Shown here piece by piece: positions 49,280 to 64,000 of a stretch of 64,000 bases of DNA (positions are counted from its first letter, which is position 1; each line of letters opens with the position of its first letter). Below the pieces are notes generated by a model. The model saw only the letters and a list, made by a program, of their open reading frames with translations. It was not told where the DNA came from and searched no databases. Source of the DNA: Candidatus Moduliflexus flocculans (GTDB taxonomy: Bacteria > Moduliflexota > Moduliflexia > Moduliflexales > Moduliflexaceae); contig DF820457.1 of assembly GCA_000739515.1 (NCBI GenBank), positions 349,804-413,803 of the forward strand. Reading direction: 5' to 3'. The translations under genes were made by a program, and so were the position numbers.

Positions 49280-51529
49280 TCACATCCATATCGTAATCGG
49301 GTTCATCTCGGATTCACTGATTGGCTTCGGAATCCATCCTAATTTCACCGGCACGTCATATAAGCGCCCCGGCGCAAATCGCGCTCGAATGTGGCGAAGA
49401 CCTGGCACAATCACCTTAACCACGCTCATTCCGATGTCCGGTCGCGTGACATCATTCACAAGAAATTCTGCCCCTAAATTGCGCGTAATCTCAAAACAGC
49501 GTTCAAGATCATCCAGAATATCCTCGCGATACCATTCGGAGTAAGATGAACGGGTTTTCGCGGGAACGGATCGATCCGGAGCAAGATACGGCAGATGTTC
49601 AAGTCGTCCAGTGCGATTCCAATCCTTCATAAATTGCTCGCGTTCCGACCGCGCTCGTTCCGCCATGCGCCCGCTTTCCATCAGATATAAGGATTGATTC
49701 ATTTCCGTCAGCGCCCTGCTGAGCGCAATTCTGACATCAAAATGCGTGCCATACCCAAAGGTCAGCATTTCGTCTTCGCGTCCCACGGTGCGAGAGATCG
49801 CTGCGTATGTCGGAATCGTTGAATCTGTCGTCAAATCCAGCACCCAGAGTTCCCTGCTGAGTGCGGCGTAATATTCACGCAAGGCGTCGAAATACGAATC
49901 GTGAAAACTGTCTAAATCCACCGCCGGGCGCTGTAAGCGGTTATACCACCAGATTGACACGGAATCCCGCTCGACGACCTCGAAAAATGCCTGCAAAATC
50001 GCCTCTTCAAGCACATTTCCAGCCGCAAAGCCATTCGATTCGACGCTATAAAACAAATCGCCGCCATCAGCAGGATCAGTGTAGCGCAAATAACAATACG
50101 CCGTCGGCACATATTTGACAGTCTGCGCTGTGCACGACCAGACTGGCGTCCAATCAATCGGCGTTTCTGGATCAAGGCGGATCGGGACATGTTCAAGCGA
50201 GAGATGCGACCGATTCCATTCCTCGCGGCAGCGATATTGCTCCTCGCTGAACAACATGCAGCGCTCAATCGGGATAAAACGCTCATCAGCCTGGCTATAT
50301 GGCATGCGGATGCGAAATTCATGGCCTTGATAGATCGCCGAATACCGCTCGACCGCTTCGCTGAAGGCGCTGGCGCGCGATTGCAGGTCGCTTCGCCCTT
50401 TGCCGGTGCTGTTGTTGCGCAACGCCCGCTGCAATTCGGCATAATTCCTGTTTACCAGAGATAGGCGATGAATCCCGGCATACATGGTGATTAATCCGTT
50501 CGCATCCGTGAACATCTGCCGCAATTCCGTGACAATGCCAGTAATCGGGCTGATCAAATGTCCGTAGCGCTTGAAGGTTTCTGTAGGAGAACAAATGCGA
50601 TGTCCGCCATCTTCGGTAAAAAATTTTTTTCTGGATTGCAATTGCAGAGGACGAGGCTCTTCATCGTGTGGCATTCCGCAGATAGGGCATTGCGGACGCT
50701 TTGAGAGGATATGCTTATCAGTCTGCAAGGTCGCGGCATCAAGTGTGATGATCGTTCCTTTCAGCGGAGAATGCGCGATATCCGCCAGACACAGCGCGAC
50801 CTGCGTTGCCGCTAACGCGCAGCCGGTTTGAAGCGTGCTCGGCAGCATCGCCCGCGACACCGGGAACGGCGCGGAACGTTCAATTTGATATTGCAGGGAA
50901 CTTTCGACTTTGCGATGTTCCGCCAACCGGTGAGCCAGACAATACCAGCAGCCCGTTTCGCCCGGAATAAAGAGCGGGCCAATCCATAACACCGCGCCGA
51001 CTGGCTTGACAAGCAGCCAGGGAGACCCCGCCTGCAACCGTTCCTGATTAAATTCGCGCAGCCCGTCTTGCAAGTAATCGTCAACGAGCGCAACAGCAAG
51101 CTCGCCAGCGTGATCGGGCTGAATTCCTAACGCGCTGAGTTGAGCCGCGAACGGCTCAGCCTGAACTTCCCCAAACGTATGCAATGCGACCCGTGCAGGC
51201 GTCTTTTGCCAGTTCGCCTGGTTGGGATCAATGCCATGCAGATGCCAAAATGCCGCCGTCGCATCCGCAGGCGCGTCTGCCGCATCCACAAGGTACCCCT
51301 GCGTTTCCAGACGCTCTAACGCATAACGGATGCTCGCTTCAGAGACAAACGCCTTCAGTTTCTCCTCAATGTCGTTGACAGCGTGCGTTCCGTCTAAAAA
51401 CGGGGCAATGGCTCGATACAAAAGTCCGCGCAAGGCATAATGCCTTTTTTCGCTCAACAAATAGACGACATCTTCGTCAGGAGCAACTTCGACATGGAAA
51501 TGCGGTTTAAATTTGGGCTTTTCAAGCAT
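49280..51529 (-). CDS. Fused RRE/E1-like + YcaO cyclodehydratase (TOMM C-D fusion)
   Basis: N-terminal RRE-like segment; IGPLFIPGETGCWYCL, KRPQCPICG, GKGRSDLQSRASAFSEAVERY, SNGFAAGN, EVVERD, RALTEMNQ, VKVIVPGLRH; ends MNPITIWM. Confidence 0.92.
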   Translation of the reverse strand: MLEKPKFKPHFHVEVAPDEDVVYLLSEKRHYALRGLLYRAIAPFLDGTHAVNDIEEKLKAFVSEASIRYALERLETQGYLVDAADAPADATAAFWHLHGIDPNQANWQKTPARVALHTFGEVQAEPFAAQLSALGIQPDHAGELAVALVDDYLQDGLREFNQERLQAGSPWLLVKPVGAVLWIGPLFIPGETGCWYCLAHRLAEHRKVESSLQYQIERSAPFPVSRAMLPSTLQTGCALAATQVALCLADIAHSPLKGTIITLDAATLQTDKHILSKRPQCPICGMPHDEEPRPLQLQSRKKFFTEDGGHRICSPTETFKRYGHLISPITGIVTELRQMFTDANGLITMYAGIHRLSLVNRNYAELQRALRNNSTGKGRSDLQSRASAFSEAVERYSAIYQGHEFRIRMPYSQADERFIPIERCMLFSEEQYRCREEWNRSHLSLEHVPIRLDPETPIDWTPVWSCTAQTVKYVPTAYCYLRYTDPADGGDLFYSVESNGFAAGNVLEEAILQAFFEVVERDSVSIWWYNRLQRPAVDLDSFHDSYFDALREYYAALSRELWVLDLTTDSTIPTYAAISRTVGREDEMLTFGYGTHFDVRIALSRALTEMNQSLYLMESGRMAERARSEREQFMKDWNRTGRLEHLPYLAPDRSVPAKTRSSYSEWYREDILDDLERCFEITRNLGAEFLVNDVTRPDIGMSVVKVIVPGLRHIRARFAPGRLYDVPVKLGWIPKPISESEMNPITIWM

Positions 51530-51799: not shown

Positions 51800-53170
51800 T
51801 TACGGGTTGTTGTCTTCCTCTGGCGCGTCGAGAAATTCCTGCACGCTCTGCATGATGTCGCCGGAATGATAAAACTCAAGAATTTTGCGATAAATGGACT
51901 CTTGAAATTCCAGACTTCCGGCATGGGTATGGAGTTTCTGCTGGTCGAACCAGCGTTTTTGAGGCAAGCGCACTAATTTGCGGCATAATGAATCCACGAC
52001 GGGATCGTTGAACGAGTATCGCAAAATCTGCAAGCGTTCTTTATCCGATTTAATCATGCCTCTGGTTTGCATTTCATGCCAGATTCCCGTATTTCGCAAT
52101 CCGACAAGATAGAGCGAAATGACGCTCTGCGAACATTGATATTGGCCGATAAATTTGACATTTTCGACAAAATCCTCTAACGTCATGTCGTAATGCGAAA
52201 ATAAGATCATATAGGCCAAAATTTTAACATCAGGAGCATATCGCTCGCGCAGCCGCATCATGGTCGTGAGCGCCTGCGCGTTTTTTTCCGGCGTCGTCCG
52301 GCGTCCGAGCAAATTCAGCAGATGCTGAGTATTCCCTTCAACACCCATTTCAATGGCGCACGGACGAATAATCTCGCTGCGAAAGAGATATTCCATTACT
52401 GCGGCATTCCGCAGGAAATCTTCTGGCCGCCCGACGATGGAGATGTGTACCGGCAGCTTTCGCGTTTCCAGTTCGCTGAATAATTCCTGGAGCAATTGCC
52501 CGTTCGCCGCAGCATTGGCATTTCCAAGATGAAAGGTGTCATATCCCTCGCGATACCAGGCTTCAATTTCGTCTGCGGCCTTCTTCGCGCTTTTAAAGCG
52601 CATGGTCGCCACGTCCTGGCAATAGTAGCAGCGCCCGTAGCAGCCGCGCGTTAATTCGATAAACACGATGCCCTGAACCACGACCAGCGTATTCGGGCGA
52701 GGTAATTCATCCAAATCCACGAATTCTGTCGGCGGGCGGACGATAATGCCGCGCTGAGAATCCCGGTACGCAATGCCGTCAATCGCATCAAATAATTCGG
52801 GCTGCTTGAAGGAGCGCAGCAGATTCAGCAGGCGTTTTTCCCCTTCTCGCAAAATCACGTAATCAACGTTGGGGTTCTCCCGCAGCATCATTTCCGGATC
52901 GGAGGTCGCCGCCCAGCCGCCCCAGATAATCGTTTTCTGCGAAAGGCGCTGCGTCAGTTCTTGCGCGGTCGCATACACATAATTCAGCACCGAAAACCCA
53001 AACACATCCGCTTGATCAATATAGTGATCAAGCTCGGAACTTGAAATGATTATGCTGTTGATGCCGTGCTGTTTCAAATACGGATCGAGAACCGCCAATC
53101 CGCTGTTGTTTGGCATCCAACTGTCAATATTCACGAAAATAATATCCGCTTTTTCTTGTGGCGCACACAT
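51800..53170 (-). CDS. Cobalamin-dependent radical SAM enzyme (class B methyltransferase-like)
   Basis: B12-binding-like N-terminus (GLAVL..YLKQHG, WGGWAAT, REGE); ELTRGCYGRCYYC. Confidence 0.82.
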   Translation of the reverse strand: MCAPQEKADIIFVNIDSWMPNNSGLAVLDPYLKQHGINSIIISSSELDHYIDQADVFGFSVLNYVYATAQELTQRLSQKTIIWGGWAATSDPEMMLRENPNVDYVILREGEKRLLNLLRSFKQPELFDAIDGIAYRDSQRGIIVRPPTEFVDLDELPRPNTLVVVQGIVFIELTRGCYGRCYYCQDVATMRFKSAKKAADEIEAWYREGYDTFHLGNANAAANGQLLQELFSELETRKLPVHISIVGRPEDFLRNAAVMEYLFRSEIIRPCAIEMGVEGNTQHLLNLLGRRTTPEKNAQALTTMMRLRERYAPDVKILAYMILFSHYDMTLEDFVENVKFIGQYQCSQSVISLYLVGLRNTGIWHEMQTRGMIKSDKERLQILRYSFNDPVVDSLCRKLVRLPQKRWFDQQKLHTHAGSLEFQESIYRKILEFYHSGDIMQSVQEFLDAPEEDNNP

Positions 53171-53212: not shown

Positions 53213-54112
53213 TTACGCCAGGCCATGTTCGTTCAGTAGTTCCGGCAAATACGTCACTGTCAGCGGGAATTGCTCCTGAAGGTTGTTCAGCACCCGATTT
53301 TCAATCCACTGCCAATGTTCTGACGGCGTGTATCCACTGAAACGAGATCGGCAGATGTCAATCAGCGCGGGGCGAATATGCTGCTCCCGCACCCAGGCGG
53401 TCAGTTGGTCAATGCGCCGCTCGACTTCTGCTACCTCAAATTTGGGAGTTTCTGGAATCGGCCCCATTTGATACAGGTAATAATAACCGTCATCGCGCTC
53501 TTCTGCTCGCACAAAACCTCCGCAAATGCGAATCCGGTGATACGGATGGTCGTGAAATGCGCGATATTCGCGTTCTGTCACTTGCACTTCAAAGGTTTCG
53601 CCGGTTTGATAATCGCAGAAAAAGTAATCTAAATCAATGTCCAGAATCACAGTTTGAGAGGCCGAAATCGTTCGGTCTGGCGTGATATGATAGAGATTGG
53701 CGACTTTCCGGTCGGGATTCAGCAGCCCGGCCTGAAAGAGGTTTTCCGTGACAAAAAGGCGGCGGCCTTCGCCTTGCGCCGAAAACATATTTAACATCCG
53801 ATCTTTCCGCAAGCGATGATGTTCCCGCCGCATCCAGTAAATATCGCTGAACAGCCCTTGATAGACGGCGGGGAGAATAAAATCGCCGATGCCAAGATTG
53901 GTTCGCGTAAACAGCAGCGTGTCGCGCAAGTCCGTCCCGATCTCTTTCAGCGAACTTTTCAGCAGCGGAAGGTTCAGGTCGTCATGATCATCCACATGGA
54001 GCAGCGTGTTGCGGGTTGCTGGGATTAGCTGGTTCATAACCGCGTACCGCCAGATGAAAAAGGCTTCGTAATGCTCTTCCATAATAAAAGTCGGTATCAT
54101 ACTGTCCCCCAT
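53213..54112 (-). CDS. UPF0489-family peptide arginase (OspR-like, Arg to Orn)
   Basis: IPTFIMEEHYEAFFIW, LLHVDDHDD, ILDIDLDYFFC, CRSRFSGYTP; embedded in the RiPP operon. Confidence 0.72.
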   Translation of the reverse strand: MGDSMIPTFIMEEHYEAFFIWRYAVMNQLIPATRNTLLHVDDHDDLNLPLLKSSLKEIGTDLRDTLLFTRTNLGIGDFILPAVYQGLFSDIYWMRREHHRLRKDRMLNMFSAQGEGRRLFVTENLFQAGLLNPDRKVANLYHITPDRTISASQTVILDIDLDYFFCDYQTGETFEVQVTEREYRAFHDHPYHRIRICGGFVRAEERDDGYYYLYQMGPIPETPKFEVAEVERRIDQLTAWVREQHIRPALIDICRSRFSGYTPSEHWQWIENRVLNNLQEQFPLTVTYLPELLNEHGLA

Positions 54113-54130: not shown

Positions 54131-55510
54131 TTAGTTCAGGCTCTCTTCCGGCGAATCGAGAAACCGCATAATGCGAGCGTGAATGTTTTCAGCCGCAGAA
54201 AATTCTACGATTTTCTCGTAAATCTGACTTTGGATGCGCTTATAACCCCAATAGATCGCGTGTTTCCCGGCGACTTGCCGAACGCTAAGCAAGGCGTGAA
54301 AATAGGAAGAAAATTTTTGGAAGAGCCGGTTAACGGTTTCATCCGTGAACGCATATTCCTGAATTTGCAAACCTTTATTGGAATTGGTAAGAAATCCTCT
54401 GGCGCGCATATCTTTCCAGACAGGCGTCATTGCCACGCCGTACAGGTTCATCGCCATCACATCTTTTGTGCAGCCATATTCTCCGATAAAACGAATGTTG
54501 GCGATTAATTCTTCCATAGTCATATCGTAGTGCGAAAACAAGATCATGTTCGCCAGAATTCGAGTGGTGGGGGAATATTTCTGCTGCAATTCTCTCAGGG
54601 CGGTGATCGCCTGATGATTGGTTGCAGGACTTCCTCTTCGCCCTAATAAATCGAGGAGGCGCTGCGTGTTGGCTTCAATACCGACTTCAATCGTGATGAG
54701 ACGCTGAGTCGGGTTTTTGAAAATGCGTTCAAGCGTGTCATAATTTCGCAGCACATCTTCCGGGCGACCAACTAAGCAGAATTCTATCGGCAAGCCGCGC
54801 GATTCCAACTCATCCATCAATGACCGTAGCAACGGACCATTCGCTAAAGAATTGGCGTTGCCAAGATAGAATTTCTTGAAGCCTTTCTGATGCCACGCCT
54901 GAATTTCATCAACGACTTTTATGGCATTTTTAAAGCGCATGTGGGAATTTTCCTGACAATAGCCGCATCTGCCGTAGCATCCCCGCGCCACCTCGACAAA
55001 CACGAGGTTATCCTGAACAGCCATCTCATTCGGCAGCGGCAGGTTATTCATATCCACAAACCCCTCTGGCGGGCGAACGCAAATTGTGTTCTGACCGTCT
55101 CGATACGCGATGCCATCAAGCGCGTCAAAGAGTTCTGGCTGTTTCAGCGAGCGCAGCAGGGTGACGAGTCGGCGCTCTCCTTCTTGCAGCACCACGTAAT
55201 CTACGCCCGGATTTTCTGTCAGAATATACTCTGGAAGCGCCGTTGCCGTCCAGCCGCCCCAAATGACTGTTTTATCCTGCAAGTGTTTTGTCAGGGTTTG
55301 CGCAATGCGATAGGTGTGATCCATGACGGAAATTCCGAATACATCCGCCTGATCAAGGTATTGGTTGATTTGAGAACTGTTGACGATCTGGCTTCTGAAG
55401 CCTGCCTGTTTCAACACCGGATCAAGAATCGCCAACGCGTTATTCATGGGAAACCAGTCGTCAATATGAATGAGAATAATATCCAATTTTCGATCAGTAT
55501 CGCGCATCAT
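54131..55510 (-). CDS. Cobalamin-dependent radical SAM enzyme, paralog of 51800-53170
   Basis: WGGWTATALP, QEGE, EVARGCYGRCGYC; start ATG 55510 after TAAGGTG. Confidence 0.82.
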   Translation of the reverse strand: MMRDTDRKLDIILIHIDDWFPMNNALAILDPVLKQAGFRSQIVNSSQINQYLDQADVFGISVMDHTYRIAQTLTKHLQDKTVIWGGWTATALPEYILTENPGVDYVVLQEGERRLVTLLRSLKQPELFDALDGIAYRDGQNTICVRPPEGFVDMNNLPLPNEMAVQDNLVFVEVARGCYGRCGYCQENSHMRFKNAIKVVDEIQAWHQKGFKKFYLGNANSLANGPLLRSLMDELESRGLPIEFCLVGRPEDVLRNYDTLERIFKNPTQRLITIEVGIEANTQRLLDLLGRRGSPATNHQAITALRELQQKYSPTTRILANMILFSHYDMTMEELIANIRFIGEYGCTKDVMAMNLYGVAMTPVWKDMRARGFLTNSNKGLQIQEYAFTDETVNRLFQKFSSYFHALLSVRQVAGKHAIYWGYKRIQSQIYEKIVEFSAAENIHARIMRFLDSPEESLN

Positions 55511-55512
55511 AA

Positions 55513-57852
55513 TCACCTTATATACGGCGGAAGCGCAAAACGCGCGATATATTCCGCATGGGTTTTGCACTGGTAGCGTGGATGGCAGGCAGCTCGCGCA
55601 GTGGTTTTGGGAAATGCATTCGCGGCGACTCCAAGCGCTGAGGTGGTCAACGCGGATAAAATCATCAACGATTTATCCTCATAATACGAAATGGCATGAT
55701 ACGTCTTGCCGACTGCCGCCACGCGCTCTCCATTCAATGCTTTGAGGTGAAGCAATGCGTGAAATGAGGATGGATCGTCTTCAAGCAGATCGCTTGAATA
55801 AAATGGAATTGGCGCGTCAGGCGTCGGATGCCTGTCAAGCTCATCTGCTATCCAGCACTGCGCCTGCGCGATTCTGTCGCTGTTAGCGCCAAGCGCGGCG
55901 AGCGTCAAAATCGCCAGCGCGGTGGAAAGCATTTGATCAAACTCGCCGAAAGCCCCGTCGTTTTGCTGACTGGCGCAGATTTCCTGCATGAGTTTGTTTC
56001 GCAGTTCATCCGCCTGATCGTCATGGCAGAGAGCCAGAGCGAGCGCCCAATCCGCCAAATACGGATTGGCGAAATACAATCCGCTCCGCTGCTCGAATCC
56101 ATCTGCAAGATACGTCAGCGATGTGCTGGGCGGCAAGCCGTGCCGCATCCTGTGCCAGCGCACGAGGCAAGTCGTGGCATAATCGGCCTGACACCAATGG
56201 CGGACATTCGGAGTGAACAGCATGAAATCAGGGCGTTGCTCCTGCGACCAGAGTTGCGGGTAATAGCCGTTCTGACCATCATGAAACCTCTCAAGCGCTT
56301 CAACCGCCTTCATGTCGTTCAGCCCGAGCAAAATCAGGGAAGAATCGGTGGCTGTGATGACATGGCCGGTATGAAACGCCCATAAATCTCCCTGCTTGCG
56401 TGTGGTAAGCAACTCTTCCAGAGACGAAAGCACGGCGGCAAGCTCGCCGTTTTGCTCGACAATCTGCCGCAATGCATATAAGAGAAAACCTAACGGCACA
56501 AGGTCGCCGTATGGAAACGGCTTTTGCGGCGCAGGCGGAATGCACATCATTGGAATCGGCTGTTGACAAGCTTTTTGCGCCAATGTCAACAGGCGCTGGA
56601 AATATTGTTTTGGCGGCGATGACAATTCAGTGCTGCGGCTCGTATCCTGAAGAAAGCGCCTGACATGCTGCGCAGTTTCCTGGCCGGATTTCACCGCAGC
56701 GTCCATGCCATAGGGAAACTCGCGATAGAGATAATCACCGGCAAGATAAATACCTGGCGCGGCGCACAAGACATCCGCGTTCCATGTCGCGTAACTTTCG
56801 GGCGTGATGATTGTTCCGCCGCATTCCCAGCGATGCGTTTCCGCAAAAAGCTGTTCAGCCCCGGCGATATTCAGCCCGACGCGCTCCATAGCGCATTTCG
56901 TCCGCGTGATCAGCTCATCATCCGGCAATTGCCGGGTTTCCTGCGACGCCCGATTGCAATAATAGACGAGAAGGACCGTTATCCGGCTTCCTGGAAACGT
57001 CATTTTGTAGATTGTGGTCATCGGTAGTTCTGGCGTCACAACGTAGGAAAATTCCTGATCGCAGATAATATCCTTATATCCGAGCGCGACGACTGTGAAT
57101 CGGCCATAACGAATGGAATGGAGAAACTGTCGGCATGGCTCGCGCATGTCTGAAAGCAGGGCGAGCGCAACCGGCGCGGGAGTCGCCACAATCACGGCGC
57201 GAGCGTATGTCTCATGGCGTGTTCCCTGCTGCGTGAATAAGACGCACATGCCGCGTTCTGTGCTCGTAATGGACTCAACCGCTGCCTCGTATTCGACGTG
57301 CGCCTGAATTCTCTGGCAATAAGCGTCAATCAGCCCATAATTTCCATCGGGATAATGTTGCGGATGATAACGCAAAAATGCGTGAGAGTGAAATGCGGGG
57401 AGATATTCTTCGATGTCGCCGGGATGAATGACCTGAAAGAACGCATTCAGCAGGTCGCGATGCTGCTGAGGCAGCCGGGCGGGGCTGAGTTTCCCATTTC
57501 CTGCGGCAAGCATGTTCGCGAACGCCGCTGATTCCGGCGGAACGATTGCGCTCAGGCATTCGGCGACCGATTCGCCGCGATAAAGCGCTCCGTCCCAAAA
57601 TACGCCAATAGGCGCAAGTTCTTCGAATGCTAACGGCGGCGAAAAATCGCGTGGAGCGCATTCGAGATCGTAGGACAACACTGCCCCGACATCATAACAA
57701 TGCGCTCCGAATTTCTGCGTGCGGATTCTCCCGCCGGGAATGGCCTCTTGTTCTAAGATCAGCGTGTTGCGATCTCGCAAATGATACGCAGCCGATAAGC
57801 CTGCCAACCCAGCGCCAATGATGATTGTCTCGAATGTTATTCCACTAACCAT
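55513..57852 (-). CDS. FAD-dependent amine-oxidase-type oxidoreductase fused to a squalene-cyclase/prenyltransferase-like alpha-alpha domain
   Basis: IIGAGLAGLSAA, GGRIRT, LAGDY..GMDAAVKSG in the first ~400 aa; helical C-terminal part with QW-like motif SQQNDGAFG. Confidence 0.7.
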   Translation of the reverse strand: MVSGITFETIIIGAGLAGLSAAYHLRDRNTLILEQEAIPGGRIRTQKFGAHCYDVGAVLSYDLECAPRDFSPPLAFEELAPIGVFWDGALYRGESVAECLSAIVPPESAAFANMLAAGNGKLSPARLPQQHRDLLNAFFQVIHPGDIEEYLPAFHSHAFLRYHPQHYPDGNYGLIDAYCQRIQAHVEYEAAVESITSTERGMCVLFTQQGTRHETYARAVIVATPAPVALALLSDMREPCRQFLHSIRYGRFTVVALGYKDIICDQEFSYVVTPELPMTTIYKMTFPGSRITVLLVYYCNRASQETRQLPDDELITRTKCAMERVGLNIAGAEQLFAETHRWECGGTIITPESYATWNADVLCAAPGIYLAGDYLYREFPYGMDAAVKSGQETAQHVRRFLQDTSRSTELSSPPKQYFQRLLTLAQKACQQPIPMMCIPPAPQKPFPYGDLVPLGFLLYALRQIVEQNGELAAVLSSLEELLTTRKQGDLWAFHTGHVITATDSSLILLGLNDMKAVEALERFHDGQNGYYPQLWSQEQRPDFMLFTPNVRHWCQADYATTCLVRWHRMRHGLPPSTSLTYLADGFEQRSGLYFANPYLADWALALALCHDDQADELRNKLMQEICASQQNDGAFGEFDQMLSTALAILTLAALGANSDRIAQAQCWIADELDRHPTPDAPIPFYSSDLLEDDPSSFHALLHLKALNGERVAAVGKTYHAISYYEDKSLMILSALTTSALGVAANAFPKTTARAACHPRYQCKTHAEYIARFALPPYIR

Positions 57853-58943
57853 GCGCCTCCCGCATTTTTCGAAAAGATGGCATTCGCGTTTAACCCCGGA
57901 TGGCTTAACGCTAAATACGCTTTGGCTTCTTTCGCCTGTCCGGACGTAATACTCAGCTTGATGTGATGAATTTTACGCAAAAGGAATTGATAGGCAATAC
58001 CTTCGGCGGGGCGCGGCCAATCTTTCGGAAAGTGCGTCATGCCTTGAAAATCCAGGATTCCCTGATATTTTGACGGAAGGCAGAGATGCATCGCCGCAGT
58101 TGCGTCGAGGAGCGGTATCCACTGTTTGGGATCATTTTCCAGCCAATTCATATAACATTCCACGCCGATTTTTTCCGCCGGTCCGTCCGGCATCAAATTG
58201 ATGTTCATCGCAAACGATTCCAGCCCTTGCGGCAACTGCCGCAAAATATCCGCGATGTTTTCCGGGTTTCCTTGCCAGCCAACCGCGCGAAGCCAGACAG
58301 GAATTTCCTCTGCCGTCAGCGGATACACGCACACTCGCAAGCCCGGGTTGGGTCTGGAAAGCATAATTCCAATTTGAAAGATGCGCGCCTCGCCGGGAAG
58401 TTCCTTGATCAGTGCATTTAGCGCGTCTTCATGATATATTGGATTTTCTAAGGCGCTTAATGCCTCGCAAATCAGGTGGGCATCCTGTTCTTTTTGGAGC
58501 GTTTTGGCATTCGGGCCGAAAAAAATGCACGGGCGGCTCAAAATCTCATCAGCCTGCGACGGGTCATCTATTGCGGCGGTGTCGAATTCTAACCAGAGAT
58601 TTCGAATGTGCGTGGAAAATGCATGATGCGGGTTTGCCCACAACGTTGCAAATCTGCGCAGATTCTTCCAGGCAGGCCATTGCGCGCATAAGGCATCTAA
58701 GGTTGAGGGCATCTCCCCGGCGAGGATATTCCGCCCCTGAGATTGACGTTTGATTTCAAAAAGAATATCCATTTTTGCGCTCGCTTCGCCGAGGCGGCAT
58801 TCAAAGCCCCAGAACGTCGCTAACTCAAACGGCAAACGCTCTGCCGCGAGCGCTAACAACGCATACCCTTCCGCGTCAACCAGGCTGTCAGGGAGCGAAG
58901 CTTTCGCCAATTCCAGCACAGAGAGCAGATTGGTCGTGATCAC
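57837..58943 (-). CDS. Putative ABBA-fold aromatic (Trp) prenyltransferase
   Basis: FECRLG, WLEFD, QIGIMLSR, KIGVECY, HHIKL..AKAYL: repeating beta-strand pattern with Arg/Lys/Tyr residues; GTG start overlaps the epimerase stop; fold assignment is inference. Confidence 0.55.
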   Translation of the reverse strand: MITTNLLSVLELAKASLPDSLVDAEGYALLALAAERLPFELATFWGFECRLGEASAKMDILFEIKRQSQGRNILAGEMPSTLDALCAQWPAWKNLRRFATLWANPHHAFSTHIRNLWLEFDTAAIDDPSQADEILSRPCIFFGPNAKTLQKEQDAHLICEALSALENPIYHEDALNALIKELPGEARIFQIGIMLSRPNPGLRVCVYPLTAEEIPVWLRAVGWQGNPENIADILRQLPQGLESFAMNINLMPDGPAEKIGVECYMNWLENDPKQWIPLLDATAAMHLCLPSKYQGILDFQGMTHFPKDWPRPAEGIAYQFLLRKIHHIKLSITSGQAKEAKAYLALSHPGLNANAIFSKNAGGAWLVE

Positions 58944-60436
58944 TGATACACCTCATCCAGCAGCCCATGATCGAATAAACTTTTTACCATCGCGACAACA
59001 GTGATCAAATTGAATTGGTTTGCGACCATTTCCTCTGTGAGCTCTTTATACGTGAATGCCTGTCTGGAAATTGCGTCGCCTAAGAACCGATGCGGCGCTT
59101 TTCCGCGAAAATGATGCACCTGATTCGGCGAGACTAAATCAAATCCCTCGTCTGTCGGGCGATAACGTAAATCGTCGCGGAAGCGCATCGGCATGTCGGC
59201 GCGTGGGGATTCCGGCATATTTCGGTCAATCAAGGATTCGATGGCCTTGCGGAAATCGGCGGCGTCAGTGAAGGAGGCGTTATCAAACACGCGATAACCG
59301 TAGGGCCATTTCGAACTGGAATAGCAGGGGCTGATCAATTGAATCGTCCGCGTGACGAAACTGACCATAAAACCGGACATGCACTCAATTGTCCCTTGCG
59401 GCACGACGCCGTTAAGATATTCTCCGTCCTCCTTGCCGCGCAAGCCGTCTTCCTCTTTCAACACGCGTCCGCTGGACACTTTCGGGCGCACATGCTCTTT
59501 CATCTGCATCAGCAAGTCCACGTCCAGCAGTTCTTCTGGGGAATATAATTCATGAATTTTGAACAGCGCCGCCTTTGAGAGAACGCTGATTCGTAAGGAG
59601 GCGGGAAACTTTCTTTCTTTGTAAAATGCGATCAATTGCCGCAGCCATGGCGCGTCCGTGCCGACTGCGGTGGAGGTAAATGGCGCAGCCCCGCAGATGT
59701 CGGTATAATCCCGCAGAAATTCAAAATAATGCGGATTATCATGCGGCTCTGTGCCGCAGTAGAGCATGGTTCTGCCGGTCTGCTCCGCGCCAAAAATATC
59801 TACGCACGCCTCAACAATAGAACGAAAAAACTCCTTGTGAATCGCATAATCGAGGTTATCGGTCAACTTCCGCGCCGCGAACGCGCAAAACCAACACCCC
59901 ACGCTGCATCCGTCGCTCAATTCAAATGATAGCACCGGATGGCTAATGTGATAGCCATAAATGCCTAATTCGCTGCGCGCGGAATGAACGCGGCGCTTGC
60001 GCCAGGCATCGAACGCGGGATTCGTTTCCACCGGCAGAACGCGATTCCGCAGCATGGCGTAGAGTTCCTCTTTCAGGGTGAGAAACCGCGCCCATAAATG
60101 GAATAAGGGATAGGCTGCGATGTCTTCAAGAATATTGGCAGGTAGTTCCTGCGTTTTCTTTGTGCGCACCGCTCTCATGAATTGCTGAACGCTCTCCGGC
60201 GATTTCCAGAGAATCGCGAGTTCATCGGGAGCGAAAGAAATGCCGATGCGCCGCAAGCGCTCACGCGCCTCCGGTCGGAACGTTCCTGCGTCAACCTCTC
60301 GGCAAAACTCGGGATCGCCTTCTGTCCATTCAAAGAACCGCTTGATCTGGGCTATCGTGGCGAGTTCTTGCTCGGAAAACGTCCCGAATAATTCTACGAC
60401 GTTGTGGCATGAATTCGAGGGTTGAGGATTCAGCAT
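58940..60436 (-). CDS. Radical SAM RiPP amino-acid epimerase (PoyD/OspD family)
   Basis: HPVLSFELSDGCSVGCWFCAF, TEPHDNPHY, GTIECMSGF, SPCYSSSKWPYGYR. Confidence 0.88.
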   Translation of the reverse strand: MLNPQPSNSCHNVVELFGTFSEQELATIAQIKRFFEWTEGDPEFCREVDAGTFRPEARERLRRIGISFAPDELAILWKSPESVQQFMRAVRTKKTQELPANILEDIAAYPLFHLWARFLTLKEELYAMLRNRVLPVETNPAFDAWRKRRVHSARSELGIYGYHISHPVLSFELSDGCSVGCWFCAFAARKLTDNLDYAIHKEFFRSIVEACVDIFGAEQTGRTMLYCGTEPHDNPHYFEFLRDYTDICGAAPFTSTAVGTDAPWLRQLIAFYKERKFPASLRISVLSKAALFKIHELYSPEELLDVDLLMQMKEHVRPKVSSGRVLKEEDGLRGKEDGEYLNGVVPQGTIECMSGFMVSFVTRTIQLISPCYSSSKWPYGYRVFDNASFTDAADFRKAIESLIDRNMPESPRADMPMRFRDDLRYRPTDEGFDLVSPNQVHHFRGKAPHRFLGDAISRQAFTYKELTEEMVANQFNLITVVAMVKSLFDHGLLDEVYQ

Positions 60437-61995
60437 TCACTCGTCGAACTGACGCCTGAGTGAGCATTGACCTCATTCAAGAATCCGTTATCAAATAAAT
60501 TTTTCAGCGCCACCACAACAATCATCGGGTTGCAGCCATGCTGTTTCGTCATAATGTCATACAACTCGTCATAGCTGTGCGTGCCTTCAGCGAGCAAGTT
60601 TCCTAACGGCTTGTGCAATGCGGCGTTGCGAAAATGGTGAATCTGATTCGGCGAGGCGAGTTCAAATCCGGATTCTGTCGGACGATAGATGAAATCATCG
60701 CGAAATTGCATCAACATGTCTTTGGGCGGATTTTCAGGCATATTCCGATCAATCAGCGCTTGCATCACGCGATGAAAATCTTCTGCGTCAGCAAAGGTGG
60801 CCTCATCGAAGACGCGATAGCCATAAGGCCATTTTTGCGAGGTATAACACGGGCTGACGATCTGGATTGTTCGCCTGACCATGTTGATTAAAAAGCCAGA
60901 GACACAGGCAATTGAGCCTTGAGGCACGATCTCGTCAAGATAATGCCCCTGTTCGCGTTCGCGCAATCCGGCCTCTTCTTTCAAAATGCGTCCGCCCGAC
61001 ACTTTTTGGCGCGGGCCGTGCTTAATTTGCATCAAAAGTTCGACGTCCCGAAGCTCTTCTGGCGAATAAAGATCGTGAATTTGATGCAGCATGGCTTTGG
61101 ACAGGACGCTCAACCTCGGCCAGGGAGAATTCGATTGCCGATAGAACGCGATCAGTTCGCGCATCCAGACCGGATCGGTTGGCACTGCTGTTGATGTGCA
61201 TACCGGAAATCCGGTAATTTCGGTATAATCTTTAACAAAGTCCAGATAATGCGGATTATCGTGCGGCTCCGTGCCATAATAGAGCAATGCCAGACTCGTT
61301 TCATATCTGCCGAACAGATCGACGCAGGCATACGTCACTTGCCGGAAAAAGTCGCGATGTTCTGTATAATCGAAATTTTGCGTCAATTTGTGTGTGGCAA
61401 ACGCGCAGAACCAACAGCCAACGCTGCATCCATCCCCCAATTCGAAGGCTAAAATCGGATGATCGAGCATATAACTGAAATAGCCTAATTCGCTTTTGGT
61501 CGCGGCAATTCGACGGAGACGCCAGGCGTCGAATTTGGGATTGGCCGGGATGCGAATCACTTTTTCCGCAATATTGCCCATATAGTTCCTGAATAAGCGA
61601 TTTTTGGCCGAAAGATACCGCCCCCATAAAACGAATAATGGATACTCCGCAATTTTCTGCATTATCTCTTCTGGTAAGGCTTCTTCATGACGTGCCTGAC
61701 AATTCAGGACAAAACGCTGCGCGGCTTCGGGATATTTCCAGAGGATGGCGACTTCATCGAGATTGAAGGTTATGCCGATGCGCTGCAAACGCTCCACTGT
61801 GGCGGGAGACATATTGCCGGAAGTCAATTGTTTTTCGAAGGCCGGATCGCCCTGCGCCCATTCAAACAGCCGTTTTAATTGGACGATCAAGGACATTTCG
61901 TCTGCTGAAAATTGGCGCAACAGTCTTGCATGAAAATCTTCGCAATTTTCAGTACTTTCAGGGATATTTGATGCTGCCTGTTGATGATTGCTCAT
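60430..61995 (-). CDS. Radical SAM RiPP amino-acid epimerase (PoyD/OspD family), second copy
   Basis: HPILAFELGDGCSVGCWFCAF, TEPHDNPHY, GSIACVSGF, SPCYTSQKWPYGYR. Confidence 0.88.
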   Translation of the reverse strand: MSNHQQAASNIPESTENCEDFHARLLRQFSADEMSLIVQLKRLFEWAQGDPAFEKQLTSGNMSPATVERLQRIGITFNLDEVAILWKYPEAAQRFVLNCQARHEEALPEEIMQKIAEYPLFVLWGRYLSAKNRLFRNYMGNIAEKVIRIPANPKFDAWRLRRIAATKSELGYFSYMLDHPILAFELGDGCSVGCWFCAFATHKLTQNFDYTEHRDFFRQVTYACVDLFGRYETSLALLYYGTEPHDNPHYLDFVKDYTEITGFPVCTSTAVPTDPVWMRELIAFYRQSNSPWPRLSVLSKAMLHQIHDLYSPEELRDVELLMQIKHGPRQKVSGGRILKEEAGLREREQGHYLDEIVPQGSIACVSGFLINMVRRTIQIVSPCYTSQKWPYGYRVFDEATFADAEDFHRVMQALIDRNMPENPPKDMLMQFRDDFIYRPTESGFELASPNQIHHFRNAALHKPLGNLLAEGTHSYDELYDIMTKQHGCNPMIVVVALKNLFDNGFLNEVNAHSGVSSTSEC

Positions 61996-62186: not shown

Positions 62187-62503
62187 TTACCAGGCTCTAC
62201 CCAGGACAGCGCCGCTGACGACGACGGAGCCACCGACGGCGCCGACAGCACCAGCAATAGCCATTGTCACAGTGACGACTCCACCAGCCACCTGCTCTAA
62301 TTCCTCGTCACTCAATTCATTCGTCGGCCTGATTTCGTCGGCCAACGCTTGAATATCGCGTTATCGAATTCAAGGCCAAGTTCGTTTTTACTATACGCGA
62401 TCCAGCCATCAACATTTTCGATGCCGATCGCTTTGACTCGTTCTCTGATTTTTTCATCTTCCGCACAGAGTTGCCCAAATTTTTTGAAATTTTCTACGCT
62501 CAT
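62187..62503 (-). pseudogene. Nif11-like RiPP precursor D with a 1-bp deletion; restored core VVTVTMAIAGAVGAVGGSVVVSGAVLGRAW
   Basis: GATAACGC at ~62361 versus GATAAACGC in precursor C; 317 nt, and adding one A restores a 75-aa leader plus 30-aa core ending in TAA at 62187-62189. Confidence 0.85.
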
Positions 62504-62561
62504 AATTTTCCTTCCTGAGATGTTTGAGATGTATGTTTCTGCATGTCGCGCACAGGCGGCG

Positions 62562-62927
62562 TTACCAGCCTCTACCGACGGCAACGCCAACGAGGCTGCC
62601 GGCGGCGGCACCAGCGACGCCGCCGCCGACGATGCCGACGACGCCTGCGGCGACGATGGCGCCGCCGACGGCGCCAACAATAGCCATTGTCGCAGTGACG
62701 ACTCCGCCCGCCACCTGCTCTAATTCCTCGTCACTCAATTCATCCGTCGGCCTGATTTCGTCGGCCAACGCTTGAATATCGCGTTTATCGAATTCCAGGC
62801 CAAGTTCGTTCTTACTATACGCGATCCAGCCATCAACATTTTCGATGCCGATCTCTTTGACTTTTTCTCTCACGTTAACATCTTCAGCGCAAATCTGCCC
62901 GAATTTTTTAAAATTTTCTACGCTCAT
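62562..62927 (-). CDS. Nif11-like RiPP precursor C; core VVTATMAIVGAVGGAIVAAGVVGIVGGGVAGAAAGSLVGVAVGRGW
   Basis: 75-aa leader MSVENFKKF...ELSDEELEQVAGG (double-Gly site) plus 46-aa core. Confidence 0.92.
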   Translation of the reverse strand: MSVENFKKFGQICAEDVNVREKVKEIGIENVDGWIAYSKNELGLEFDKRDIQALADEIRPTDELSDEELEQVAGGVVTATMAIVGAVGGAIVAAGVVGIVGGGVAGAAAGSLVGVAVGRGW

Positions 62928-63053
62928 CGCATTTGTTCCTTTTATTCTTGAGGCGTCTCGACTTCGCTTGGTGCATCATGCTTTAAATCATCGCACAAAG
63001 TCGAGGCCGCCCTACAGAATACTATCGAATAGAAAACAAGACTCGCCCGTAAC

Positions 63054-63413
63054 TTACCATCTTCTGATAGCTCTCACAACTGCAATCGCGGCGCCAGCAA
63101 CAGCCCCCAAGGCTGCGGCTCCACCGGCAGCAGCTCCGGCAAGAGCAATCATCCCGGCAACAGCGGCGCCGGCGGTTGCCGTGATGAAGCCTCCGGCCAC
63201 CTGCTCCAATTGCTCTTCGCTCAATTCATTCTCTGGGCTGACTTCAGCGGCCAAGGTCTCGATGTCCTCTTTACTGAATTCCAGGCCGAGTTCATCCTTG
63301 CTATAGGCGATCCAACTGTCAATATTTTCGATGCCGATCTCTTTGACTTTTTCTCGGATTGCGGGATCTTCTGCACAAAGCTGTCCGAATTTTTTGAAAT
63401 TCTCAACGCTCAT
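63054..63413 (-). CDS. Nif11-like RiPP precursor B; core FITATAGAAVAGMIALAGAAAGGAAALGAVAGAAIAVVRAIRRW
   Basis: 75-aa leader ending ELSEEQLEQVAGG plus 44-aa core; AAAGGA RBS. Confidence 0.92.
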   Translation of the reverse strand: MSVENFKKFGQLCAEDPAIREKVKEIGIENIDSWIAYSKDELGLEFSKEDIETLAAEVSPENELSEEQLEQVAGGFITATAGAAVAGMIALAGAAAGGAAALGAVAGAAIAVVRAIRRW

Positions 63414-63586
63414 ATCACTCGTTCCTTTCTCTTGTTTACGGGGCTCGATGTCGTTCGATGTTCGGCACAGTCCCGCCTTGTCCTTACAGGTATGGACATA
63501 CAATGTTATGGCAAGCTGTCAGACACCTTCAAGGTGTTCGACAGTTTTTTCCTGACCACAACGTGTTGTGTCATTACAAATTGGCA

Positions 63587-63925
63587 TTACCATCTCTTAA
63601 TGGCAGAACCAACCGACGCGACAACTCTGGCAGCGCCAGCGGCGATTGACACTCCACCAGCAATTACTCTGATGACGGAGGCAGCGGTTGACGTGACGAA
63701 TCCGCCAGCGACTTGTTCTAATTGTTCTTCGCTCAATTCATCGACCGGCCCAACTTCGTTGGCCAGAGTCTGCATGTCTTCTTTCGTGAATTCTAAGCCG
63801 AGTTCGTCCTTGCTATAGGCAATCCAGCCATCAATGTTTTCCACGCCGATTGCTTTGACTTTTTCTCGGATTGTGGGGTCTTCTGCGCAAAGCTGTCCGA
63901 ATTTTTTGAAATTCTCAACGCTCAT
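63587..63925 (-). CDS. Nif11-like RiPP precursor A; core FVTSTAASVIRVIAGGVSIAAGAARVVASVGSAIKRW
   Basis: 75-aa leader ending ELSEEQLEQVAGG plus 37-aa core; AAAGGAG RBS. Confidence 0.92.
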   Translation of the reverse strand: MSVENFKKFGQLCAEDPTIREKVKAIGVENIDGWIAYSKDELGLEFTKEDMQTLANEVGPVDELSEEQLEQVAGGFVTSTAASVIRVIAGGVSIAAGAARVVASVGSAIKRW

Positions 63926-64000
63926 ATCACTCGCTCCTTTCTCTACTTCATTGGCCTCAATGGTGTTCGATGCCCAACATTCCATGTGAGCCACACAACG

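Follow-up and report, generated by a model that had tools for sequence, protein, structure and literature searches.

Attachment and cyclisation of a terpene on a tryptophan (Trp) of a ribosomal peptide was first described in 2024. In NctPC, as outlined in a review (PMC13290415), an ABBA prenyltransferase is fused to an MstE-like cyclase, and the enzyme geranylgeranylates Trp and then cyclises the attached chain; ChrPC is described there as doing likewise. The same review covers PalQ, which prenylates a C-terminal Trp and prefers Gly-Trp ends. SrpI brominates a C-terminal Trp (PMC12615548), and peptide arginases act on precursors with Nif11-like leaders (N11P; PMC12703449). Elements related to some of these occur in a 64,000-nucleotide (nt) stretch of the Candidatus Moduliflexus flocculans genome (assembly GCA_000739515.1, contig DF820457.1, forward-strand positions 349,804 to 413,803; this whole stretch is called the window), where a tandem array of precursor genes for peptides made by the ribosome and modified after translation (RiPPs) stands upstream of a set of tailoring-enzyme genes. 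The reading favoured here, at a probability of roughly 0.7, is that eight Nif11-type precursors share this one downstream enzyme set, which would act while the leader is attached, and that the product is anchored by a terpene.

The nearest known chemistry appears to be that of the 2024 prenyltransferase-cyclase RiPPs, here combined with polytheonamide-type enzymes. Like NctPC and ChrPC, the cluster would pair an ABBA-fold prenyltransferase of low similarity to the cyanobactin enzymes with a monodomain class II cyclase for modification of a ribosomal-peptide Trp. Set against NctPC by the review's description, the prenyltransferase is here a separate protein, and the cyclase is fused instead to a flavin amine-oxidase/desaturase-like domain. 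In contrast to both described systems, the acceptor would be a C-terminal Trp, and the pathway adds epimerases, B12-binding radical S-adenosylmethionine (SAM) enzymes, an arginase and a YcaO protein. Nif11-like precursors were reportedly predicted among the hosts in 2024. PalQ and SrpI are both specific for a C-terminal Trp, and the preference of PalQ for Gly before Trp fits the GGW and RGW tails of the precursor family; however, PalQ has a trans-isoprenyl-diphosphate-synthase fold rather than an ABBA fold. The substrates of SrpI have nitrile-hydratase-like leaders (NHLP) and short cores, and the window holds no halogenase, although precursors of Ruegeria and other Proteobacteria in the same family adjoin a Trp-halogenase homologue.

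Three further systems share parts of this locus. The polytheonamide and aeronamide proteusins likewise combine PoyD-family epimerases, B12-radical SAM enzymes (PoyB/C type) and long Ala/Val/Gly-rich cores suited to membrane helices of alternating D- and L-residues, but here the leader is of Nif11 rather than nitrile-hydratase type, the cores lack an Asn-rich segment, eight precursors replace one and a terpene module is added. Neither an N-methyltransferase nor a dehydratase turned up among the genes scanned, no search having been aimed at either. Landornamide and selidamide (OspR with OspD) resemble the cluster in having a PF12640 arginase with intact metal motifs beside a PoyD-type epimerase; conversion of Arg to ornithine (Orn) is expected, whereas lipidation would here be Trp prenylation and not Orn acylation; a lanthionine synthetase and a GNAT acyltransferase were also not encountered among the genes scanned, again with no search directed at them. 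In the prochlorosins, too, many precursors, tandem or dispersed and served by one enzyme, share a conserved Nif11 leader and a Gly-Gly site, their cores are hypervariable, and the genes for the exporter/protease lie at another place; but the cores described here are Cys-free and not lanthipeptide substrates, and the enzyme set is entirely different.

An array of eight Nif11-type precursors

The leaders of precursors A, B and C are 75 amino acids (aa) long and begin with MSVENFKKFGQ, and the leader of every copy ends in ELSEEQLEQVAGG or ELSDEELEQVAGG (consensus ELS(D/E)E(E/Q)LEQVAGG). All copies thus contain a double-glycine cleavage motif preceded by an acidic L(x)4L stretch, an arrangement described earlier (PMC12715784). 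Scores above the cut-off of the Nif11-like leader model TIGR03798 (47.2 bits for A and 51.3 for B, cut-off 32.3) class these proteins as N11P precursors, and PF07862 is also matched (25.1 versus a cut-off of 23.8). The family label 'proteusin' was rejected, since the NHLP model TIGR03793 gives 17.3 bits against a cut-off of 50.9 and covers the last 19 leader residues only.

Translation agrees with what the first-pass annotation of this DNA had said of the cores: their lengths (Table 1), their starts (FVTST, FITAT, VVTAT and VVTVT for A to D) and ends (KRW, RRW, RGW and RAW), the absence of Cys, Asn, Asp and Glu from all four window cores, and the predominance of Ala, Val, Gly and Ile. GxxxG is abundant in the cores. 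The same annotation had described an array of four precursors with a constant 75-aa leader. A, B and C are intact genes and the core of D is present (VVTVTMAIAGAVGAVGGSVVVSGAVLGRAW), but D is frameshifted and the array extends beyond the window. A profile search of the whole 7.15-Mb assembly returned nine matching pieces, all at one place, and four further intact precursors follow base 64000 (G000:C6:413857-415723), with cores VVTTT...AVKRW, FATST...AVRRW, FVTST...AIKRW and LVSST...AVKRW. The array therefore comprises eight genes, seven of them intact, and is cut by the window end; the four window genes probably form the promoter-distal half of this tandem N11P array. Each gene is preceded by a Shine-Dalgarno-like AAAGGA or AGGAAGG, spacers within the array measure 55-251 nt, and the first enzyme gene lies 191 nt beyond the end of D on the same strand.

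Mean protein identity among the copies is 85% in the leaders and 52% in the cores, which indicates that the array members are paralogues and that their similarity does not arise by chance. Alignment of the leader DNA of all eight copies upholds one of the two duplication pairs proposed earlier, C/D (91% identity), and adds N2/N3 (91%); the other, A/B, was rejected because its two members are 82% identical, compared with 90% for A and its nearest copy, N1, the first of those outside the window. The earlier idea of a natural combinatorial library of lipidated membrane peptides is reasonable, as it fits a set of eight paralogues in which the leaders are conserved and the cores diverge.

Copy D reads GAT-AA-CGC where its paralogue C reads GAT-AAA-CGC, and an intact orthologue on a related metagenome contig (L049:633-968) has three bases at the same site. 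The leader frame of D opens with the ATG at 62503 and runs for 63 aa to a stop at 62312, and the remaining leader and the core are readable solely in another frame; the 63-aa product corresponds to entry P0049 of the public protein collection. Because D shows no other damage, its 1-nt deletion points to an inactivation that is very recent or else to a homopolymer error.

A 12-bp hairpin, CUGUCGAACACCUUGAAGGUGUCUGACAG, lies 3' of precursor A on the minus strand (window 63478-63506), in the A-B spacer, which as a whole folds marginally better than shuffles (z = -2.0). Across the array, z-scores of intergenic RNA folds ranged from -2.0 to +1.0 and none was rated better than shuffles, and a scan of the array for promoters and terminators found none.

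C-terminal tryptophan and the enzymes predicted to modify it

The precursor profile retrieved 82 homologous proteins from several phyla, 79 of which have a recognisable core; the nearest named homologues belong to candidate division KSB3. Trp is the terminal residue in 74 of the 79 cores (94%), Thr occupies position 5 in 66 (84%) and Thr or Ser position 3 in 65 (82%). The xxTxT start and the terminal Trp appear, on this alignment, to be hallmarks of the whole precursor family, no description of which was found in the literature. The residues before Trp vary by lineage: RRW, KRW, RGW or RAW in close relatives, S-K-x-W in Desulfobulbaceae, GDGGW, GSGW or GRGGW in Proteobacteria and RRRW in Selenomonadaceae.

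Gene neighbourhoods were surveyed with the enzymes of the window at 35 loci from named genomes and at several metagenome loci (identified below by L numbers). A scan of metagenomes yielded mainly short contigs and contributed little. A recurrent set, composed of one or more precursors, one PoyD epimerase, the prenyltransferase, the flavoenzyme-cyclase fusion and a sulfotransferase-like protein, often with a C39-peptidase ATP-binding cassette (ABC) exporter, occurs in Desulfobulbaceae (L011, L015), Synergistaceae (L016) and metagenomic relatives (L046, L047). Precursor, epimerase and prenyltransferase are linked in several phyla, with their genes in rearranged order. At proteobacterial loci the epimerase and prenyltransferase are accompanied by a homologue of Trp halogenase and by an FAD_binding_4 oxidase, Ruegeria loci carry the halogenase and oxidase only, and a Saprospiraceae locus (L044) has only the prenyltransferase and the flavoenzyme fusion.

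Among genomes whose contigs extend far enough, a prenyltransferase and/or a Trp halogenase stands beside W-ended precursors in 19 of 20, compared with none of 12 genomes with Nif11 loci that lack the terminal Trp (Fisher p = 6e-8, uncorrected for shared ancestry). A Peptococcaceae control locus (L029) fits the same pattern: it has the epimerase, and the terminal W and the prenyltransferase are both absent. This association across genomes is the strongest evidence at hand that the prenyltransferase acts on the terminal Trp, which is most likely the site of attachment of a terpene lipid. The earlier assignment of the terminal Trp to prenylation and cyclisation is supported by the co-occurrence across phyla, together with the ABBA fold and the class II cyclase matches described next.

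The 368-aa candidate prenyltransferase has no Pfam or NCBIfam match. Its AlphaFold2 model, built with ten homologues, consists of repeated strand-strand-helix-helix units (predicted local distance difference test score, pLDDT, 86.9; predicted template-modelling score 0.87). In a Foldseek search of the PDB the top 28 matches were all ABBA prenyltransferases (probability 0.85-1.0), with the tryptophan/indole enzymes PriB, IptA, DMATS1 and TleC leading, followed by the RiPP enzymes LimF, PagF and PirF. The model accordingly describes a putative ABBA-fold prenyltransferase whose best structural matches are tryptophan/indole prenyltransferases. Its family, for which Pfam has no model, includes 3740 representatives at 50% identity, 2818 of them with E < 1e-10.

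The C-terminal 355 residues of the 779-aa protein, searched against the PDB as a six-sequence profile, match squalene-hopene cyclase (3.5e-19), the monodomain cyclase 8pak (1e-17), the prenylcyclase 6ij1 (1.4e-8) and, weakly, MstE. Foldseek with a low-confidence model of this domain returned 8pak, 6ij1, 5bp8 and MstE as its top matches. Both profile and model thus support a relationship of this half of the protein to class II terpene cyclases.

The prenyltransferase itself ends in ...GGAWLVE (window 57837-57866), and almost all of its closest homologues carry a motif of small residue, Trp and hydrophobic residue 3-4 residues from the C-terminus (GGGGWL, EGGWR, NHAW, DGAWIVD and others). A W falls within the last six residues of 37 of 115 full-length relatives, where about 13% would be expected, and the best matches are enriched in such relatives. 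The tail resembles the ...G-W end of the substrates and may act as a pseudo-substrate. In one member of the family, P0196 (640 aa), the prenyltransferase is fused to a sulfotransferase, and other relatives are fused to 2-oxoglutarate-Fe(II) oxygenases.

Two groups of relatives stand out by the number of their precursors. An alphaproteobacterial metagenome-assembled genome (OZ243948, 1.045-1.102 Mb; L017, L021, L024) contains a super-cluster in which some 18 precursors ending in W (GDGGW) are distributed over about 56 kb, along with epimerases, prenyltransferases, exporters and a halogenase. Selenomonadaceae (L032 6364-11361, L034 1-4600) have seven or eight precursors of Nif11 type, with cores that are not all hydrophobic. 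All of these precursors end in R-R-W or similar; they adjoin a protein of 625-641 aa, the N-terminal part of which is distantly related to the prenyltransferase (23-24% identity).

The enzyme set, export and the proposed pathway

Downstream of the array the cluster encodes two PoyD-type epimerases, both with the motif CSVGCWFC, followed by six further enzymes (Table 1). Because the gene that follows has a housekeeping role, encoding an NAD(P)HX epimerase/dehydratase, the end of the cluster is placed at 49280. The 479-aa B12-binding radical SAM enzyme matches models of RiPP C-methyltransferases only weakly. In the arginase the metal motifs, compared with those given for peptide arginases (PMC12703449), are intact (EEHYEAF, DDHDD, LDIDLDYFFC); its score against NF052474 is 256 bits, under the cut-off of 350, and it is therefore not a FlmR/OhkR equivalent.

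Table 1. Precursor and enzyme features of the locus, in window coordinates unless a locus number is given
Feature	Position	Strand	Description	Basis
Precursor A	63587..63925	minus	112 aa: 75-aa Nif11-type leader and 37-aa core FVTST...AIKRW	Open reading frame (ORF), translation
Precursor B	63054..63413	minus	119 aa: 75-aa leader and 44-aa core FITAT...AIRRW	ORF, translation
Precursor C	62562..62927	minus	121 aa: 75-aa leader and 46-aa core VVTAT...VGRGW	ORF, translation
Precursor D, frameshifted	62187..62503	minus	30-aa core VVTVT...LGRAW at 62187-62279	Three-frame translation
1-nt deletion in D	62361..62362	minus	AA where C has AAA	Alignments to C and L049
Out-of-window precursors	L010 258-602, 854-1192, 1313-1651, 1786-2124		Intact	
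Putative PoyD-type radical SAM peptide epimerase 1	60430..61995	minus	521 aa; CxxxCxxC at residue 190	TIGR04517 384.5 bits (cut-off 325)
Putative PoyD-type radical SAM peptide epimerase 2	58940..60436	minus	498 aa	TIGR04517 377 bits
Predicted ABBA-fold prenyltransferase	57837..58943	minus	368 aa	Predicted structure, Foldseek, co-occurrence with W-ended precursors
Predicted flavoenzyme-cyclase fusion	55513..57852	minus	779 aa; N-terminal flavin amine-oxidase/phytoene-desaturase-like, C-terminal class II terpene cyclase	PF01593 1.4e-25
B12-binding radical SAM enzyme (putative C-methyltransferase)	54131..55570	minus	479 aa	PF02310 and PF04055
Putative peptide arginase (UPF0489/PF12640)	53213..54112	minus	299 aa	PF12640 57.5 bits (cut-off 27)
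Second B12-binding radical SAM enzyme	51800..53170	minus	456 aa	Family-model matches
Fused E1-like leader-binding/YcaO cyclodehydratase	49280..51529	minus	749 aa	PF02624 3e-94; TIGR03604 263.9 (cut-off 219); TIGR03882 168.2 (cut-off 36.9)

The only full C39-peptidase ABC exporter of the genome is encoded with HlyD and a second ABC protein on the same contig, 400 kb from the array (L073 5085-11785; G000:C6:812085-818785). The genes of this operon are 58%, 47% and 34% identical to cluster-linked exporter genes of Desulfobulbaceae (58% for the C39 ABC protein versus L015), and a C39 exporter adjoins the cluster in the relatives L015, L047, L048 and L071. By analogy with the prochlorosins, Gly-Gly cleavage is likely to occur in trans through this distant exporter.

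Under the favoured reading, the two PoyD-type epimerases would convert L- to D-residues in the aliphatic body of the core and the two B12-radical SAM enzymes would add methyl groups, the aliphatic middle being a plausible substrate for both. The arginase would convert the Arg near the C-terminus, and probably internal Arg too, to ornithine, and the fused YcaO cyclodehydratase would form oxazolines from Thr/Ser. The ABBA prenyltransferase would place an isoprenoid on the indole of the invariant C-terminal Trp, which the flavoenzyme-class II cyclase fusion would then oxidise and cyclise. Finally, the HlyD/C39-peptidase exporter would cut after Gly-Gly and release a hydrophobic membrane peptide with D-residues and a terpene anchor.

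Several points weigh against this pathway. What the analysis shows are gene structures, family assignments, folds and the co-occurrence of a terminal Trp with Trp-modifying enzymes across phyla; all reactions of the pathway, the residues that they would alter, the length of the prenyl chain and any bioactivity are deduced from these. A profile of the prenyltransferase finds no match to characterised enzymes among PDB sequences, and its structural matches have template-modelling scores no higher than about 0.5. Confidence in the model of the cyclase domain is low (pLDDT 55.6), and the canonical DxDD motif is not evident in the domain; the conserved stretch is T-x-x-D-S-x-L, with D503/S504 invariant in six homologues. 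No polyprenyl diphosphate synthase is encoded in or beside the cluster, and no protease or exporter in the cluster itself. The co-occurrence counts are not phylogenetically independent, and a W-ended Catenovulum locus (L019) has neither prenyltransferase nor halogenase, carrying instead YcaO/TfuA, a cupin hydroxylase and a flavin adenine dinucleotide (FAD) oxidase. Copy D, lastly, may be dead.

Upstream of the array and outside the window lie a 251-aa sulfotransferase-like protein (L010 4134-4889; G000:C6:417733-418488; PF13469 under cut-off), a membrane-anchored beta-lactamase-family protein and a DUF7005 protein (the last two at L010 2325-3734 and 4896-6050). The sulfotransferase-like protein accompanies the prenyltransferase/flavoenzyme-cyclase in L011, L014-L016, L046 and L047, and the other two also adjoin precursors in L011, L015, L046, L048, L071 and L072; all three recur with the cluster in distant relatives. 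The beta-lactamase-family and DUF7005 proteins may be cluster members, for example as a peptidase for D-residue peptides or in immunity. An SDF sodium:dicarboxylate symporter and family-3 solute-binding and ANF-receptor-type binding proteins recur beside related clusters of unrelated lineages (L015 7296-8489 and 16026-18282; L047 6495-9880; L019 17004-19226) and are absent beside the window's cluster.

Alternative readings and implications

The first-pass annotation had assigned each invariant core residue to one enzyme, with Thr3 and Thr5 kept as azoline sites for YcaO, Arg for the arginase and Trp for the prenyltransferase. T3 and T5 are the sole hydroxyl residues common to all eight cores, core B having no other, so that they would be the only possible universal azoline sites in this cluster; the YcaO protein is of the fused azoline type, and the cores lack Cys. 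However, xxTxT is equally conserved at loci with no YcaO within 10 kb (L011, L015, L016, L017, L018, L020-L022 and L024-L026); Desulfobulbaceae (L011, L015), the halogenase loci of Ruegeria and loci of Alphaproteobacteria exemplify clusters that keep the start without a YcaO. Homologues of the fused YcaO, arginase and B12 enzymes of the window are restricted to the window and its closer relatives L046, L047 and L071; the YcaO proteins of L019, L023, L027 and L028 are distant (24-27% identical), that of L019 being paired with TfuA. The persistence of the motif in YcaO-free clusters suggests that it predates or is independent of YcaO, and YcaO as the cause of Thr3/Thr5 conservation was rejected. 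No factor common to all TxT loci was found among the enzymes and transporters tested: the sulfotransferase-like protein, the C39 exporter and the epimerase were each rejected because none is present in all of them, and the exporter is also contradicted by C39-linked Nif11 loci without TxT.

The link between Arg and the arginase fared better, with moderate support. The metal motifs are intact, and all four arginase-bearing clusters (the window, L046, L047 and L071), which are mutually related and hence not independent evidence, carry a basic residue, Arg or Lys, at the second position before Trp and an Arg among the last three residues. Arg is nevertheless not family-wide: in most relatives it is replaced by Lys or, in GGW/GSGW-type tails, absent. 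Conservation among homologues, which the annotation had proposed as a check, thus extends to T3, T5 and W across the family and to Arg in a sub-family. Apart from L016 (PGW), flavoenzyme-cyclase clusters without arginase show Lys at the second position before Trp; the Desulfobulbaceae cores, ending in S-K-x-W at loci that lack an arginase, are of this kind. From these alignments the motif is better worded [K/R]-x-W, with Arg as a sub-family feature, and the basic residue two before Trp appears to mark the sub-family that has the flavoenzyme-cyclase fusion. Ornithine made by the arginase would offer a primary amine of the kind that Lys has. A strict one-to-one map of residues to enzymes is unlikely.

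Less probable still is that the Trp at the end of the core and the TxT near its start act as recognition elements or as anchors at the membrane interface, on either side of a transmembrane stretch, and that the prenyltransferase-like protein acts elsewhere. Trp and hydroxyl residues typically flank membrane-spanning segments, and the G/A-W motif at the C-terminus of the prenyltransferase sub-family could mean that the protein binds Trp without turnover. Yet across phyla the terminal Trp goes together with two unrelated types of Trp-modifying enzyme, the ABBA prenyltransferase and the flavin halogenase, and the characterised precedents modify exactly a C-terminal Trp. That the precursors are ordinary, essentially unmodified double-glycine bacteriocins of class IIb type beside enzymes of another pathway is very improbable: the cores are GxxxG-rich, and A matches PF10439 weakly and the lactobin A/cerein 7B model TIGR03949 at 25.3 bits (cut-off 21.5) over just the GG site and the Ala/Gly-rich stretch, but B falls short at 16.9 bits, the precursors lie directly upstream of the enzymes on their strand and the linkage with epimerase and prenyltransferase recurs, rearranged, in several phyla.

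Beyond the reading of eight precursors processed by one enzyme set, a wider and distinctly tentative proposal can be made. Precursors of the form 'GG | hydrophobic-hydrophobic-(T/S)-x-T ... Ala/Gly/Val body ... W-COOH' might constitute an undescribed multi-phylum RiPP class, with the free C-terminal Trp as a universal handle for an interchangeable prenyltransferase or halogenase; such precursors occur in KSB3-like, Desulfobulbaceae, Synergistaceae, Anaerolineales, Alpha- and Gammaproteobacteria, Saprospiraceae and Selenomonadaceae lineages. In the branch to which this cluster belongs, the product might then be a membrane helix of D- and L-residues, similar to polytheonamide and with a cyclised terpene as its cap. 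At the second position before Trp a primary amine (Lys without arginase; Lys or ornithine with it) might be required as the partner of the flavin amine-oxidase, which might for instance cross-link it oxidatively to the terpene-indole unit.

The family-wide rule, a Trp-ended precursor beside a Trp-modifying enzyme, provides a simple and testable signature for genome mining. It also draws attention to a large prenyltransferase family that lacks annotation and numbers about 3700 sequence clusters. Enzymes that are guided by a leader and tolerate many cores are useful for making lipidated, protease-resistant peptides. If the favoured reading is true, one operon in Candidatus Moduliflexus flocculans joins the two most elaborate kinds of ribosomal-peptide tailoring known, the installation of D-residues and C-methyl groups and the attachment and cyclisation of a terpene on Trp, and applies both to eight different natural substrates.

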